Virus record (IMG/VR): IMGVR_UViG_3300045988_119195
Location: 1 to 59,879 of that record
Direction: 5' to 3' (one strand)
DNA from: a virus
DNA length: 59,879 nucleotides
Under the pieces are notes generated by a model. That model did not search any database, was not told where the DNA came from, and saw nothing but the letters and a program-made list of their open reading frames with translations. This document shows positions 26,665 to 59,879 of the stretch, one piece after another. Each line of letters opens with the position of its first letter. The stretch's first letter is position 1. Position numbers and translations under genes: made by a program.

Positions 26665-26697
26665 TGTCTACTGAGCAAAAAGGACGATACGTTCGAT

Positions 26698-26808
26698 ATG
26701 GATAACCTCGACGCGCTGGATGCCGTCGAAGGCGTAGTTGTTGAAGGCGGTTTTGACCCCGAAACAGCAGAGGATGATGGTTGCGCTGGCGGTGCTTGCA
26801 AAATCTAA
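26698..26808 (+). CDS. 36-aa microprotein mimicking the C-terminal redox tail of class Ia RNR alpha subunit (ends DDGCAGGACKI)
   Basis: MDNLDALDAVEGVVVEGGFDPETAEDDGCAGGACKI stop. E. coli NrdA ends ..DDGCESGACKI (from memory). The start overlaps the stop of a 13-codon ORF (26664-26705), which is itself TAATG-coupled to the upstream gene. Confidence 0.5.
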   Translation: MDNLDALDAVEGVVVEGGFDPETAEDDGCAGGACKI

Positions 26809-26879: not shown

Positions 26880-27581
26880 ATGATTATCGGTTTAGTTGGT
26901 AAAGCAGGCGTTGGTAAAGACACCGCTGCTCAAATTTTAAGCAAACTCAAAAACATGCCTATTGCATCTTTTGCACGGCCTTTACATGAAGCAGCCAAGT
27001 TCGTCTTCGGCGATGATTGCTTGGAGCGCGATAAGAAGGAGACACCAATGCCTTTCGATGTTGAAGGTTTTGACAAACTGCGCGAAGGCTGGCTGATTCC
27101 GTTCTTGAAGACTGAGGAAGTCCAGTCCATTACAAACGATGAGAAAATCTTTTACAACCTCATACGCCTTGTATTTATCGACAGCGAGGGTGATTGTACA
27201 TATCCAGCTCCATACGAGCAGTTATCACCGCGCAAATTCATGCAGTTGCTCGGCACTGAATATTTCCGTTTCTGTATGGATGACTTCTTCGTCCGTCTTA
27301 TGCAGAATTCATACAAAGACGTTATTATTCCCGACGTTCGCTTTGAAAACGAAGCCGCTATCTGCGACCTGTTGATTGGTATTCATCGTGACGTTCCTTC
27401 TGTGAACGGTCATGTCAGTGAGGAATTTGCTGACCTGCTTATTGAAGGCGAAGATGATGGTGAGAAAGGTGTAATTATGGTAGATGGCAATTGGGTCGAT
27501 TACCTGATTGTTCACAATACTCAGGATATTCTCAGCATGGAACAAAAACTGTTAAAACAATTCAATTTAGGCTATATTTAA
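26880..27581 (+). CDS. Deoxynucleoside monophosphate kinase-like P-loop protein
   Basis: N-terminal MIIGLVGKAGVGKDTAAQIL is typical of phage dNMP kinases. Confidence 0.65.
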   Translation: MIIGLVGKAGVGKDTAAQILSKLKNMPIASFARPLHEAAKFVFGDDCLERDKKETPMPFDVEGFDKLREGWLIPFLKTEEVQSITNDEKIFYNLIRLVFIDSEGDCTYPAPYEQLSPRKFMQLLGTEYFRFCMDDFFVRLMQNSYKDVIIPDVRFENEAAICDLLIGIHRDVPSVNGHVSEEFADLLIEGEDDGEKGVIMVDGNWVDYLIVHNTQDILSMEQKLLKQFNLGYI

Positions 27582-27595
27582 TACTCTATTAAATG

Positions 27596-27634
27596 AAGCA
27601 CTTAGCTCTATTTTACGGCTAAGTGCTTTTTAAT
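27596..27634 (+). terminator. Intrinsic terminator of cassette 1
   Basis: AAGCACTTAGC-11 nt loop-GCTAAGTGCTT followed by TTTTT. Confidence 0.8.
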
Positions 27635-27637
27635 TGC

Positions 27638-27666
27638 TTGACAATACTTAAGCGTATCGATATTAT
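27638..27666 (+). promoter_or_regulatory. Promoter of cassette 1
   Basis: TTGACA-N17-TATTAT, followed by the conserved CA-rich leader CAACCAACGACAAACAAAGGAA. Confidence 0.7.
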
Positions 27667-27702
27667 TCACTCATCAACCAACGACAAACAAAGGAAAAGA
27701 TT

Positions 27703-30887: not shown

Positions 30888-32564
30888 ATGTCTTGTGAAA
30901 TCGGATATGTGAAAGTTGACCTGCTCAAAGCACTCGGCATGAGTGATAGTCAGGCGATTAAGACGGCGATTGAATGCGCCGCAGCAACAAAGACCTTCAT
31001 CGAGTTCGGTGAAGGCACATACACCCTAGACGAACAGATTCGTATGGACGAACGCCATGCTGGTATCCGTGGTATCAAGGGTGCTGGTATGGGCAAAACC
31101 AACATCGTTTTCAACTGGGAGCAGCCTGAAAACTGGGACGCGAACACGAACAAAACAGATGCCCGTAAGTGGTGCGGTATCATCGTCGACGGCCTTCCAG
31201 ACGTAACACTGGAAGATTTCAGCATTGAATACAAAGGCACTTTCCACTGGAAAGGCGAGACCTATCGCGGTTCTGTCATGAATATTATGATGGTTGATAC
31301 TACCAACGGTCTGGTTCAGCGCGTAGAATCGAAAGGCTCTAACCGTATCGGTATCTTCTTCACCTCTCACAATGGTGAGGTTGTTGCTCTGGGTGAGCAG
31401 TTTAAGAAAGGTACTATTACCCTCGACCAGTTGCGTGAGGCGACTATTAAGGCCAGCGGCAACCGCGCTATCGAGTGTCACTCGCACCATAACCGCGTGG
31501 CTGGTATCGCCTACGCGTGGCAAAAAGACTTCCAAGCATTTAACAACTACTGTCACCATAACGGCCATGAAGCAAACGGCGGCACTGGTTATGGCATTAC
31601 CGCTCTGTCAGGCTCGTTGAATTTCGGCTTGAATAGCATGATTAAGGGTAACAAACTTGAGCGTAACTATCGCAAAGGTCTTGATTCCCATGATGCCGTT
31701 GACTTCATCGCCGAAGAGAACAACATCCTCGATAACCGCCTACATGGTTTTGCATACGAGAACCGCCAGTATCCAGTGGCCTACATCCGTCTTGTAAACA
31801 ACACTATCCACTTCGACGGTACGTTTGTACTTGAGCGTGATGAGAATGTTGCAGAAGGTGCGCAGTTAGACCTGAATATGGACTACTATCGTGAAAGCGG
31901 TATTCGCATCGAAATCAAGCAGCAACCATGGCAGCAATGGGTTACACAGGTCAATCCCGAAATCATCATCGAAGGTAACACGATTACGGGTATGAATAAA
32001 ATCGACACGATTCAGCGTGGTTCGTATTGGTGCATCGAGTATCGAAACAACGACCAAGAAGCCAAGCCAAACGTGAAGATTCGGAACAACCGAATCACTG
32101 GCAATGGTCGTCTGACTTCGTTCCTGTCTGCGTTTGCCAAAGCACCAGCTGTAAAATACGGCATGGGTGACTTCTTGTTCTCCGACAATATCATGGAATG
32201 CGAATATTGCGACGGCGTGCCTTTCTACGTTGAAGAGAACAGCAATGCTGCAAACGACCATTCTGTCATTATCGAAAACAACATCGTGAAGGTTACTTCG
32301 AAGAACACCGTCACCAAGGCTACGTCTTTGAAGGCCGCCGATAAACTGTTCTTCCGCAATAATCAGTTGCACTTGCCTGCTGATTTCGGTCGACCAACCT
32401 CACGCTTCTATGTGGGCAATCCTGCTGCACAAATCAGCTACACCGATAACGACATCTATACACAGTCTCTGATTAACCAAGTTCGTGCCAACTGGCTTGA
32501 TAACAGCGTGTCGGCGAATACGGTTATTCAGCGAAACAGGGTTCTTACAATAAATAATTTGTAA
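30888..32564 (+). CDS. Right-handed beta-helix (pectate-lyase superfamily) protein; candidate polysaccharide depolymerase / tailspike
   Basis: N-terminal D..AI..AI..A......F.EGTY pattern. Repeated NN.I.GN / N.I..N beta-helix rungs. Confidence 0.6.
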   Translation: MSCEIGYVKVDLLKALGMSDSQAIKTAIECAAATKTFIEFGEGTYTLDEQIRMDERHAGIRGIKGAGMGKTNIVFNWEQPENWDANTNKTDARKWCGIIVDGLPDVTLEDFSIEYKGTFHWKGETYRGSVMNIMMVDTTNGLVQRVESKGSNRIGIFFTSHNGEVVALGEQFKKGTITLDQLREATIKASGNRAIECHSHHNRVAGIAYAWQKDFQAFNNYCHHNGHEANGGTGYGITALSGSLNFGLNSMIKGNKLERNYRKGLDSHDAVDFIAEENNILDNRLHGFAYENRQYPVAYIRLVNNTIHFDGTFVLERDENVAEGAQLDLNMDYYRESGIRIEIKQQPWQQWVTQVNPEIIIEGNTITGMNKIDTIQRGSYWCIEYRNNDQEAKPNVKIRNNRITGNGRLTSFLSAFAKAPAVKYGMGDFLFSDNIMECEYCDGVPFYVEENSNAANDHSVIIENNIVKVTSKNTVTKATSLKAADKLFFRNNQLHLPADFGRPTSRFYVGNPAAQISYTDNDIYTQSLINQVRANWLDNSVSANTVIQRNRVLTINNL

Positions 32565-32583
32565 TTTAATACTCTGACAAATG

Positions 32584-32622
32584 AAGCACTTAGCTATATT
32601 TTACGGCTAAGTGCTTTTTAAT
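32584..32622 (+). terminator. Intrinsic terminator of cassette 2
   Basis: Same hairpin as cassette 1, followed by TTTTT. Confidence 0.8.
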
Positions 32623-32625
32623 TGC

Positions 32626-32654
32626 TTGACAATACGTATGCTTGAATATAATAT
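32626..32654 (+). promoter_or_regulatory. Promoter of cassette 2
   Basis: TTGACA then TATAAT (15-nt spacer) or TAATAT (17-nt spacer). Conserved CA-rich leader. Confidence 0.65.
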
Positions 32655-32690
32655 TTACACATCAACCAACAACAAACAAAAGGAACTGAA

Positions 32691-32954
32691 ATGGCTCTGA
32701 AATTTCTGAAAAATATGCTCGGTATTTCATCAAAAAGCAAAGGCAGTGGCGCACCCTTATATGGTAAAACCAAACATGATTTCCCACTCTAGCAGCACTA
32801 TAAAGGCGGTCTATATCGACTCTTGCTGGTAGCACGTTCAGAGGTGTCTGGTTTGGAGCAGGCTGTATACCGCTCTGAATCAACAGGTGTCGTTTATACG
32901 CGCCCAATGCGTGAGTTTAAAGACAAATTCAAAGCATTCGACGTGGGTATGTGA
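32691..32954 (+). pseudogene. DUF1653-like gene interrupted by an in-frame TAG (32790-32792) at the conserved Tyr position
   Basis: SD AAGGAA then ATG 32691. After the TAG the frame reads QHYKGGLYRLLLVARSEVSGLEQAVYRSESTGVVYTRPMREF, matching the DUF1653 pattern Y.HYKG..Y.....A.HSET.E..VVY......WVRP..MF. Confidence 0.6.
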
Positions 32955-32955
32955 T

Positions 32956-33258
32956 ATGAAATATAAAGATAAACTTGAGGTTATGTTCTGGCACGGCATT
33001 AATCGTGATGGTGTTACAGCAACACACCAAAGCACTTTGCGCGTGGAGATTGTGTCACCTTCCAGCGAACATGGCTTGGCTCGTATCATCATTGAGCATA
33101 CTCGTGAGGACGTTTGCCATCCAGTCACAGGCTACGGAACAGAAACTAATTATGCGTTTGCCGATTTAGCTGAAGAGGAACTCGATACCCTAATCGGCAT
33201 GTTGGAAACATGCAAATCTAAACTCAAAGAAGGAAATCAAAATGAAAGTAATCAATAA
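32956..33258 (+). CDS. Hypothetical protein
   Basis: ATG 32956, just after the DUF1653 stop. The track ORF from 32887 overlaps it. Confidence 0.55.
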   Translation: MKYKDKLEVMFWHGINRDGVTATHQSTLRVEIVSPSSEHGLARIIIEHTREDVCHPVTGYGTETNYAFADLAEEELDTLIGMLETCKSKLKEGNQNESNQ

Positions 33259-33820
33259 CAAACATCACTTCATGGTCGACTTAGAAACACTTTCGTCAGA
33301 ATCGAATGCACATATCCTTGAAACGGCTTTGGTTTGTTTTGACCCTGTATCTGGTGAAGTGTATAAGCATGGCACATTTCATGTACGTCATGGCTTGGAT
33401 AAACAAGCAGGTGCTATTATCAGCGTAGAAACTCTTGAGTGGTGGTATAAAACAAACCGTGGTTATCTTGCCAAATTACTGAATCCCAAAGACGAGGATA
33501 AAGAGGTTCTGGCCTCCACGTTACATCGAATGCAAGCTCTGTTTGACGACGCTCGCGGCGATGGCGGTCTCCTTGTATGGAATACAGGTATGTTCGACGT
33601 GGAATTACTCAACAACGCTTTCAAACGCATTATCAACCCAAACATGACGTTGATTAATTTCTGGGAAGTTCGTGATTGTCGCTCACTCCGAACAATCGGG
33701 GATATGTTCCCTCGTTTGCAGCAAACAGTACCTGAAGCAACGCACAATGCCTATGAAGACTGTATTCGTCAAATCGGGTATATTACCGACGTTACTCAAT
33801 ACTTGGCTAAACAGGACTAA
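33242..33820 (+). CDS. DEDDh 3'-5' exonuclease (Rv2179c-like)
   Basis: Motif I VDLETLS, internal WNTGMFD, motif III HNAYEDC. Confidence 0.7.
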   Translation: MKVINNKHHFMVDLETLSSESNAHILETALVCFDPVSGEVYKHGTFHVRHGLDKQAGAIISVETLEWWYKTNRGYLAKLLNPKDEDKEVLASTLHRMQALFDDARGDGGLLVWNTGMFDVELLNNAFKRIINPNMTLINFWEVRDCRSLRTIGDMFPRLQQTVPEATHNAYEDCIRQIGYITDVTQYLAKQD

Positions 33821-34032: not shown

Positions 34033-35331
34033 ATGAAGAAAACTCTCATTGCTCTGTGCGTTACGCTCGTAGCATCATCCCAATTAACGATGGCGGAAGT
34101 CGGTCGCAGTGCGGTCGCTATCGGCAACTACGTCACCGCCGAAGGCGATGGTTCAACCGCGATGGGTATGCACTCCCACGCATACGCGAATCTATCGACC
34201 GCCGTGGGCGCACACTCCAAGGCAAGCGGCGTGACCTCACAGGCATTCGGTAGCGCGTCGTGGGCTAAGGGTTACTCCACGACAGCGTTGGGTAAAGGTA
34301 CACTGGCCGAAGGCTCTGCATCGACCGCCGTGGGCGCACACGCTACGACAATCGGCAATAGCTCCTCCGCACTCGGCCTGCACGCAAACGCCATTGGTGG
34401 CCAAAGTACGGCTCTGGGTCAGTCCTCAGTGGCTCGCGGCGACCAATCAACGGCTATCGGTAGCGGTGCTACGACAGAAGCCCGATTCAGCACGGCTATT
34501 GGTACAAACGCTAAAACCGAGCATTACAGCGGCGTGGCTATCGGCTTCAACTCGACAACCAGCGACTTCAAAGGCGTTGTCAGCAGCACCATTGATGGCG
34601 TTACCTACGGCAAGTATGCTGGTCATCGCCCGACATCGGCGGTCTCTATCGGTTCGAAAGGCTTTGAACGCCAGTTGCAGAACGTGGCTGCTGGTAACGT
34701 AACCCAAACATCAACCGATGCTGTCAACGGCTCGCAGTTATATGCCGTGGCTTCGCAGGTCAGCACCAATGTGAAGGTGAATAACGAGCAGGACGTTCGC
34801 ATTGCGGCAAACAGCGAACGCATCACCAACGTCTATCACACGGTACAGCAATACTCTGGTTGGATGGAAACGCAGGAGTCGGAAATTTATAGCCTGAAGC
34901 TGCGCGACCGTGATTTGCGTAACAAAATCACCGAACTGAACAAGCTGATTGAAGGCAACTTCGACGCAATTCGTAACGACATCAATAAAAACCGACGCGA
35001 CAGCAATGCAGGTATTGCAGGTGCAATCGCAATCGGCACAATGATGCAGCCATACGAAGCAGGTCAAAGCGCAATCACTGTCGGCGCAGGTTCGTTCAAG
35101 AATGAAGCCGCTATTGCTATCGGCGCGTCACATATCACCGAAAATGGTAAGTGGGGCTTTAAAGGTGGCGTGTCGGCTGATACTCGCAAGAATATTGGTG
35201 TCGGCTTGAGCGCGGCATACTTCTTCGGTGCAAAACCGAAACCAGTTGCCGCACCACAGCAGGTGATTGTCAAAGAAACCGTGGTGGTTCGTGAACCAGC
35301 AGTTGTTACTGAAAAGAAAATTCGTCAGTAA
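34033..35331 (+). CDS. Trimeric autotransporter adhesin (YadA/Hep_Hag type) with Sec signal peptide
   Basis: MKKTLIALCVTLVASSQLTMA signal. Repeated S.A.G...A.G head motifs. Neck/stalk AVNGSQLYAV. Coiled coil. YadA-anchor-like AGIAGAIAIG...GVGLSAAYFF. Then 34 extra residues. Confidence 0.8.
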   Translation: MKKTLIALCVTLVASSQLTMAEVGRSAVAIGNYVTAEGDGSTAMGMHSHAYANLSTAVGAHSKASGVTSQAFGSASWAKGYSTTALGKGTLAEGSASTAVGAHATTIGNSSSALGLHANAIGGQSTALGQSSVARGDQSTAIGSGATTEARFSTAIGTNAKTEHYSGVAIGFNSTTSDFKGVVSSTIDGVTYGKYAGHRPTSAVSIGSKGFERQLQNVAAGNVTQTSTDAVNGSQLYAVASQVSTNVKVNNEQDVRIAANSERITNVYHTVQQYSGWMETQESEIYSLKLRDRDLRNKITELNKLIEGNFDAIRNDINKNRRDSNAGIAGAIAIGTMMQPYEAGQSAITVGAGSFKNEAAIAIGASHITENGKWGFKGGVSADTRKNIGVGLSAAYFFGAKPKPVAAPQQVIVKETVVVREPAVVTEKKIRQ

Positions 35332-35350
35332 CTTAATGTTGTAATAAATT

Positions 35351-35389
35351 AAGCACTTAGCTGTATTTTACGGTTAAGTGCTTTTTAAT
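35351..35389 (+). terminator. Intrinsic terminator of cassette 3
   Basis: Same hairpin with one G-U pair, followed by TTTTT. Confidence 0.8.
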
Positions 35390-35392
35390 TGC

Positions 35393-35421
35393 TTGACAAT
35401 ACTTATAGGCATTGATATTAT
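35393..35421 (+). promoter_or_regulatory. Promoter of cassette 3
   Basis: TTGACA-N17-TATTAT. Conserved CA-rich leader. Confidence 0.7.
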
Positions 35422-35454
35422 TCACTCACCAACAACAAACGAAGGAACTTGAAA

Positions 35455-36205: not shown

Positions 36206-36376
36206 ATGAATATCACTGAAAAAGATGACGATGTGTTGCACAACAGGTTATACGAGATTGTGCGTGGTGTTGATAATCTCCGTATGCTGTTGTTTGAAAT
36301 GGGTGCTACTCCCACATTCATCGTTGAAAACTTACTACGTTGTGATGCAGAAAGCACTGAGGAATATGTCGACTGA
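36206..36376 (+). CDS. Hypothetical protein, N-terminal half of paralog B (ends at an in-frame TGA)
   Basis: SD AAGGAG 8 nt upstream. 56 aa, colinear with residues 1-60 of paralog A. Confidence 0.5.
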   Translation: MNITEKDDDVLHNRLYEIVRGVDNLRMLLFEMGATPTFIVENLLRCDAESTEEYVD

Positions 36377-36703
36377 ATGACACTTCGTGTCGAACGTATG
36401 CGTTTAGCAGTTGACCAGCTTAGTGTTCACGATGTTGATTTATCCCATAGTGGTTATCTGTACTACTTTAGCAGGGAAGGATACTTTATAGCAATTACCG
36501 TCACGGCTTTGTTGGCCAAAGACAGCGATTACGATGGGGAAGATATTGCGGTTGACCTTTCGGCAGTTATCCCCGAAATTCTCACCCCAGAATTGCATGA
36601 TGCGGCCAAACGTTCCAACTGGGAAGAGAGTAAGCGCATCAATGAGGCGATTGCCTACGTTCTAACACTACTTGATAAACAAAAGGAAAATTCAAATGGC
36701 TAA
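36377..36703 (+). CDS. Hypothetical protein, C-terminal half of paralog B
   Basis: The ATG directly follows the in-frame TGA (GTCGACTGAATG). Colinear with residues 60-168 of paralog A (..DVDL....YYFS.EG.. ..YDGE.. ..IAYV). Confidence 0.6.
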   Translation: MTLRVERMRLAVDQLSVHDVDLSHSGYLYYFSREGYFIAITVTALLAKDSDYDGEDIAVDLSAVIPEILTPELHDAAKRSNWEESKRINEAIAYVLTLLDKQKENSNG

Positions 36704-59807: not shown

Positions 59808-59879
59808 TTACAATTCGTTAGCTTCGTCTTTGGATTCACCGTCTTTGGATTCACCGTCTTTGGATTCACCGTCTTTGGA
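59808..59879 (-). CDS. 3' end of the junction-spanning FI-position gene (see 1..328)
   Basis: ..SKDGESKDGESKDGESKDEANEL then TAA at 59808-59810. Confidence 0.6.
   Translation of the reverse strand, partial: SKDGESKDGESKDGESKDEANEL
59818..59879. repeat. 15-bp tandem repeat array, right-edge copy
   Basis: Three perfect units at 59835-59879, preceded by one degenerate unit. Confidence 0.9.

Follow-up and report, generated by a model that had tools for sequence, protein, structure and literature searches.

The locus at positions 32691–32954 of the phage genome analyzed here raises a simple question: when a small gene carries an in-frame TAG exactly where its relatives carry a tyrosine codon, is the stop decoded, is it an error of the sequence or has the gene been lost? 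We consider it quite probable that the change is a recent and real nonsense mutation, leaving a 33-residue disordered peptide; this would make the allele null, or barely leaky, in an accessory gene that is conditionally useful. The window, i.e. the whole stretch of DNA that was analyzed, is a complete uncultivated viral genome of 59,879 bp from IMG/VR, and the same sequence is found in the human oral metagenome run ERR589702 (PRJEB6997). Genes for a tape-measure protein (1,835 aa), a tail protein (1,266 aa), a large terminase, a portal protein, a DNA polymerase and a primase mark the phage as one of the siphovirus type. The two ends of the record (1–46 and 59834–59879) repeat 46 bp inside a 15-bp tandem repeat, ATTCACCGTCTTTGG, that lies within coding sequence; this end repeat probably marks the circular closure of the assembly and no physical terminal repeat. 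The phage NrdB (37995–39104) is closest to NrdB of the Neisseriaceae (Conchiformibius, Eikenella, Alysiella and Neisseria, at 66–67% identity), with 62–65% for Enterobacterales, Vibrionaceae and other Proteobacteria. This protein comparison gives a weak hint of a Neisseriaceae host, which fits the oral source.

The DUF1653 gene and its interrupted reading frame

The gene lies on the plus strand and begins with the ATG at 32691–32693, preceded by a Shine-Dalgarno sequence (AAGGA, 32680–32684). From this ATG, the frame reads 33 sense codons, the TAG at 32790–32792 and 53 further codons up to the TGA at 32952–32954; re-reading the sequence returned exactly the coordinates, frame and in-frame TAG that an earlier, sequence-only reading had given for a DUF1653-like gene. 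The 5' part (32691–32789, plus strand) is a poorly conserved tail that is predicted to be disordered, and these 33 codons would be the entire product under the standard code. The premature amber codon (plus strand) takes the position of Tyr34, its mutated base, 32792, being G in the window and T or C in all relatives. After the TAG, the frame begins QHYKGGLYRLLL... and runs on to the terminal TGA. This 3' part (32793–32954, plus strand) holds, according to Pfam, dN/dS and AlphaFold2, the whole undamaged domain (QHYKGGLY...RPMREF...) together with the TGA, and stays untranslated unless the TAG is read through. Restart of translation does not rescue the domain. The first in-frame ATG after the TAG is codon 73, in keeping with the earlier remark that none precedes residue ~70, and the TTG or GTG codons at 45, 52 and 55 are without a Shine-Dalgarno sequence. 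A functional restart was therefore rejected, also because a product started at TTG45 or GTG52 would miss strand 1 and the HYKGG motif. An antisense ORF of 81 aa (32662–32907) was likewise rejected as a gene, as stops are present in it in one relative (G001).

The gene is the first one past a terminator-like hairpin and a promoter, both on the plus strand, which agrees with the earlier description of a gene with a good Shine-Dalgarno sequence directly after a cassette promoter. The hairpin (32584–32619; AAGCACTTAGC / GCTAAGTGCTT) was read from the sequence and has an 11-nt loop followed by a T-run. A simple terminator scan did not pick it up, because its loop is longer than 8 nt. The promoter (32626–32654) is of the sigma-70 type, TTGACA-17-TAATAT, with TATAAT and a 15-nt spacer as an alternative. 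Spacer base 32636 is G in the window only and T in six relatives. The hairpin forms the opening half of an intergenic cassette that is repeated three times in the genome (about 27576–27696, 32562–32686 and 35328–35454; 81–87% identical), each copy consisting of a hairpin with an 11-bp stem and a T-run that is followed by a sigma-70 promoter close to the consensus and by a leader. Each copy insulates a separate accessory unit. The Logan contigs end at these cassette repeats.

The family assignment, which the sequence-only reading had proposed from the motif, is borne out by the PF07866 (DUF1653) profile. When Tyr is placed at the stop, the read-through product reaches 32.3 bits (E 1.3e-7), above the gathering cutoff of 23.5 bits, and the match spans the stop, from residue 33 to 78 (profile positions 2–48 of 62). 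With X at the stop the score is 27.8 bits; the part downstream of the stop reaches 29.1 bits by itself, and the 33-aa piece before the stop gives no score against the profile. Among residues tried at the stop position, Tyr scores best (32.3 bits), followed by Trp (30.1), Phe (30.0) and Gln, Ser, Leu, Lys or Glu (27.4–27.9), so that the profile favors an aromatic residue, and Tyr most of all, at this position. An exhaustive HMMER search found 171 representatives of the family, with matches that begin at query residues 32–34. In a family alignment of 81 sequences, 60 of the 75 distant members have Tyr in column 34 and 73 of them an aromatic residue or His, which, together with Tyr in the ~209 close homologues described below, upholds the claim that the TAG replaces a conserved tyrosine. 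H36, Y42 and Y60 are invariant in this alignment, and K38, G39, R71 and F80 reach a conservation of at least 90%; all of these residues are found in the window. The stop thus occupies the first conserved residue of the domain, and the Y-x-H-Y-K-G-G-x-Y motif and the later Tyr, Arg and Phe are all present, with only Y34 replaced, by the stop. What the window carries at this gene is not an uninterrupted reading frame, given the TAG, and is a disrupted allele of a DUF1653 family member.

The predicted structure of the read-through protein places the tyrosine in the same way. AlphaFold2 models residues 31–80 with a pLDDT of 95–98 as a small beta-sheet plus a helix, and residues 1–30 as disordered (pLDDT about 53); Tyr34 lies within the first beta-strand (residues 33–36) of the confidently modeled domain. 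A Foldseek search with residues 31–85 of the read-through protein (model m1a1584cf2535) gave 3BE3, a DUF1653 crystal structure from Bordetella bronchiseptica that shares the fold of the predicted domain, as the top solved structure (E 3.8e-3, probability 1.00, TM 0.49/0.55). In BFVD, many phage DUF1653 proteins match the predicted fold, including phiKZ gp023 and ICP1 ORF60. Unlike the window protein, most family members are without the 30-residue disordered N-terminal tail. The matches after 3BE3 are Tudor/SH3-like domains that interact with RNA polymerase, i.e. the Mfd RID, the CarD N-terminal domain and the UvrD C-terminal Tudor domain, with E-values of 0.1–0.6, which are not significant, at probabilities of 0.9–0.98; 52–59 columns are aligned, with an rmsd of about 3 Å and an identity of 14–21%. 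This resemblance of a model should be taken as a possible lead to a role of DUF1653 in binding the host RNA polymerase and as no family assignment.

Other searches returned little that bears on function. A literature search found DUF1653 mentioned once in passing and PF07866 never, and no function for the family. PHROGs and NCBIfam hold no family for the protein or its neighbors, a PDB sequence search returned only chance beta-lactamase matches (E about 0.1), and, among deposited phages, megablast found no match and tblastn only distant DUF1653 genes of Serratia jumbo phages. In five phage-like proteins (P0072, P0088, P0142, P0143 and P0146), DUF1653 is fused downstream of Phage_gp49_66 (N4 gp49 / Sf6 gp66), and a crAss001_48-related domain often follows it there, which makes a recurring three-domain architecture. 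These fusion partners provide no functional lead for DUF1653.

Codon 34 in relatives and the base at 32792

Codon 34 is TAC or TAT in all 19 orthologous places, i.e. in 6 IMG/VR genomes and 13 metagenome places. In the protein collection, the homologues form 18 clusters, and those that cover ~209 member sequences are full length and carry the Tyr; the remaining ones are three single-sequence clusters with altered C-termini and one further cluster of a shorter, 58-aa form. An in-frame stop at codon 34 occurs in none of the 19 places and none of the 18 clusters. The exact protein that the window would encode with Tyr at the stop is found on 7–9 contigs from at least five other samples. One of the contigs from another sample (L039) has the same gene throughout except for T at 32792, and three more (L024, L038 and L040) have one additional, synonymous base difference in the gene. 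The lesion is thereby seen to be TAT to TAG, by a single T-to-G transversion at 32792, which bears out the earlier statement that the stop lies one change away from a Tyr codon.

On two grounds, the T-to-G change is very recent. When codons 35–87 are compared with more distant orthologues, dN/dS is 0.008–0.08 at a dS of 0.46–1.29, as compared with 0.19–0.72 for the N-terminal tail, and the domain downstream of the stop is thus under strong purifying selection. No second defect is found in codons 35–87, so that the domain past the stop is undamaged. In addition, the rest of the gene matches an intact allele in other samples. Among the options that the sequence-only reading had listed, it is the recent nonsense mutation that these two observations favor. 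As for the tail, two short-form orthologues (L025 and L033; FLRR01000901.1 and FLRR01000313.1) begin MINNKQDFELYEHYKGG…, start ten codons upstream of the Tyr and are without the 30-residue N-terminal tail, which appears from these sequences to be optional for the family.

The relatives that carry the near-same gene overall share only about 90% identity with the window. Two mosaic blocks (~32680–33315 and ~31600–32000) are 99.5–100% identical to L024, L038, L039, L040 and L042, and the comparison suggests a recent recombinational exchange of the block with the DUF1653 gene and the 100-aa gene that follows it among co-circulating oral phages.

An allele that differs only at 32792 and circulates elsewhere is also what one would expect if the G were a sequencing or consensus error and the true phage had TAT and an intact gene. 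We consider this unlikely, and the points on both sides should be weighed. The TAG allele is present in the IMG/VR record, in an ENA MEGAHIT contig (59,990 bp) and in a Logan contig of ERR589702, and the truncated 33-aa product is called on the MEGAHIT and Logan contigs, in JGI/IMG and in NCBI nr. Over 2.8–6.3 kb, the MEGAHIT and Logan contigs match the window at every base. As the lengths of the records differ, by two units of the tandem repeat after assembly overlaps are removed, the window is a third, separate assembly, and the agreement of three separate assemblies on G excludes artefacts of a particular assembler. All three, however, share one run, ERR589702, and a systematic read error or a consensus error at low coverage could be common to them. 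Assemblers of the type used for this run drop k-mers seen once and keep the majority path, and a self-closed contig of 60 kb implies usable coverage; both speak against such an error.

The kind of change gives a further argument in each direction. In a block of ~750 bp that is shared with six other contigs, the window has three private bases, 32636 (T>G), 32792 (T>G) and 33089 (G>T). All are G/T transversions (n = 3) and none is synonymous. G/T transversions are a class linked to oxidative damage and read artefacts, and such a pattern near the gene is a little suspicious. Genome-wide, however, G/T-type changes make up about 15% of the window-private substitutions, with a transition fraction of 0.74, and this spectrum is the same as that of three relatives (G001–G003). 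A genome-wide burst of oxidative damage or error was rejected on this basis, and the assembly is not error-rich. The window genome also has two further gene lesions, described below, where four relatives have none, which would favor an error-prone record; one of the two, however, differs from the relatives at three bases and is no single miscall. We infer that the reads do carry G at 32792 and that the full-length protein is not made.

Possible decoding of the TAG, and other lesions in the genome

A real TAG could still be decoded, by an amber suppressor of the host or by efficient context-dependent read-through, in which case a full-length, functional protein would be made and the allele maintained. 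The stop falls exactly on a Tyr codon one step away, the domain downstream of it is perfectly intact and the base after the stop is C (TAG-C), with which termination in E. coli is comparatively weak. All the same, this explanation appears very improbable to us. The stop is missing from every orthologue, and the recency of the change fully explains the intact domain. The only tRNA in the window and in four complete relatives is tRNA-Pro(TGG), beyond which Rfam found nothing; the phage and its relatives thus encode no suppressor tRNA, as had been noted earlier for the phage tRNA. Of 72 crude gene calls, 8 end in TAG, among them genes of 715, 334 and 270 aa, and a strong suppressor would extend those 8 proteins. 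A supF-type laboratory host, which had been put forward together with a check of the host genotype, does not apply here, as the source of the genome is a human oral metagenome and no cultured stock or laboratory sup strain.

The same counts bear on two further ideas. Recoding of TAG throughout the genome was rejected, given the 8 normal terminations at TAG and the single interior TAG; under the standard code (table 11), the coding density is about 90%. Regulated or programmed read-through, another of the options raised earlier, is not supported, since the stop is conserved in no orthologue and TAG is an ordinary terminator elsewhere in the genome.

We screened for lesions of this kind as single interior stops that are backed by at least three of the four complete relatives. 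The screen found two genuine interior stops in the window, the TAG at 32790–32792, which is the only genuine interior TAG, and a TGA at 36374–36376, and none in the relatives. The TGA splits a gene of ~160 aa (36206–36703) that in the relatives is a continuous ORF with Glu at this point (…YIDEM…). The window reads GAC TGA ATG and the relatives GAC GAG ATG, a difference of three bases, with the nearest relative being only 91% identical at this locus. As the TGA directly abuts a conserved Met codon, the TGAATG junction could allow termination and reinitiation; neither piece of the split gene has a known family. A third break shifts the frame in an A/G run near 26680, within a small gene (26665–26808), where the window has CAAAAAGGACG and the relatives have CAAAAAGACG or CAAAAGAACGACG. 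One relative (L028) also has an out-of-frame length of the A-run near 26680, so that the run is length-variable, and an internal ATG could still allow a Cys-rich C-terminal peptide to be made. As these other lesions are a TGA and a frameshift (at about 26680), the breaks in this genome are not amber-specific, and an amber suppressor would rescue neither.

Loss of the module and comparison with known amber codons

The DUF1653 gene is followed, on the plus strand, by two other genes of a three-gene module. The first encodes 100 aa of no known family (32956–33258) and is probably translationally coupled, because a single base separates its ATG from the TGA of the DUF1653 gene; the private base at 33089 is a missense change in it, S45I. 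We find it probable that the premature stop also lowers translation of this gene, with the coupling being lost. The third member encodes an Rv2179c-like (PF16473) exonuclease (33242–33820) and overlaps the end of the 100-aa gene. Parts of the module are missing in other natural variants. A contig from another sample (L061; ERZ26134664 NODE_250) is without window positions 32910–33006 and 33232–33809, by which the end of the DUF1653 gene and essentially the whole exonuclease gene are gone, and a GenBank protein from a metagenome-assembled Caudoviricetes (P0027) implies a different deletion, of ~890 bp, that starts at codon ~58 and reaches the last part of the exonuclease gene. These are independent natural deletions in the same module, and the DUF1653 gene can accordingly be lost. 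A frameshift allele (L060, protein P0028) was not counted as a natural knockout, as its two indels are both located in A-runs, where they may stem from errors in the reads.

Taken together, our preferred explanation runs as follows. Within the phages of one human oral sample, a T-to-G change at 32792 would have turned the TAT that encodes Tyr34, a residue of the first DUF1653 beta-strand, into TAG. Under the standard code, translation would then stop after 33 codons and yield a disordered tail without the domain, and the allele would be null or, at best, weakly leaky through basal misreading of the stop. The gene would be part of a non-essential early or accessory module, as partial deletions of this module in other natural variants suggest. 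Since the domain is under strong purifying selection across the wider lineage, the protein normally matters, and a null allele at majority frequency therefore needs either relaxed or reversed selection in the host at hand or hitch-hiking.

A variant of this explanation, and no exclusive alternative to it, is that loss of the module is selected rather than neutral, with the module being costly in some hosts, e.g. when sensed by a host defence, and the amber codon being an escape mutation that is polar on the coupled downstream genes. Disruptions are recurrent and independent (the amber codon here, the two deletions in L061 and the one of ~890 bp in P0027), the three private changes in the window (promoter spacer, nonsense and missense) could all alter function, and neutral decay is unexpected in a domain that is otherwise strongly conserved. 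The counts are, however, tiny, at three SNPs and, in a set of more than 200 sequences, two or three variants with a deletion, and the literature search found no defence system or sensing relation for DUF1653. Sporadic null alleles of accessory genes are, moreover, common without selection and need none here. We thus regard selected loss as quite unlikely, and are similarly doubtful of its stronger form, in which the amber codon would be one of several selected knockouts of an early module and DUF1653 perhaps a Tudor-like binder of the host RNA polymerase. If this were true, natural loss-of-function alleles in metagenomes would mark a defence trigger.

To return to the recent nonsense mutation, it is an ordinary thing for a gene of a known domain family to carry an amber allele in nature. 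The locus points to neither an alternative genetic code nor programmed read-through and, as a single natural nonsense allele in a genome record that holds two further small-gene lesions, it carries little weight alone. In annotation, it should be labeled as a disrupted DUF1653 gene, and taken neither as two tiny ORFs nor as evidence of recoding. The module as a whole, being strongly conserved yet repeatedly lost, is a reasonable candidate for a conditional function, such as host takeover or counter-defence.

Two known systems offer a comparison. In the classical amber (sus/am) mutants of laboratory phages such as lambda and T4, likewise, a sense codon one step from UAG became UAG and the product was truncated; a Tyr codon turned into UAG is the textbook case that a supF-type suppressor restores exactly. 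Unlike these mutants, the allele in the window comes from a natural oral community, with no mutagenesis or selection on suppressor strains, no suppressor is encoded and the gene is accessory and not essential. With phages that recode a stop codon, e.g. TAG as Gln (code 15) among crAss-like and Lak phages, the window shares an in-frame TAG in conserved coding sequence, and both are uncultivated and human-associated. In recoded phages, in-frame TAGs are numerous and usually found within late genes, a suppressor tRNA is often encoded and genes avoid ending in TAG, whereas the window has one TAG, no suppressor tRNA, TAG in use as a terminator and Tyr at this position in all relatives.
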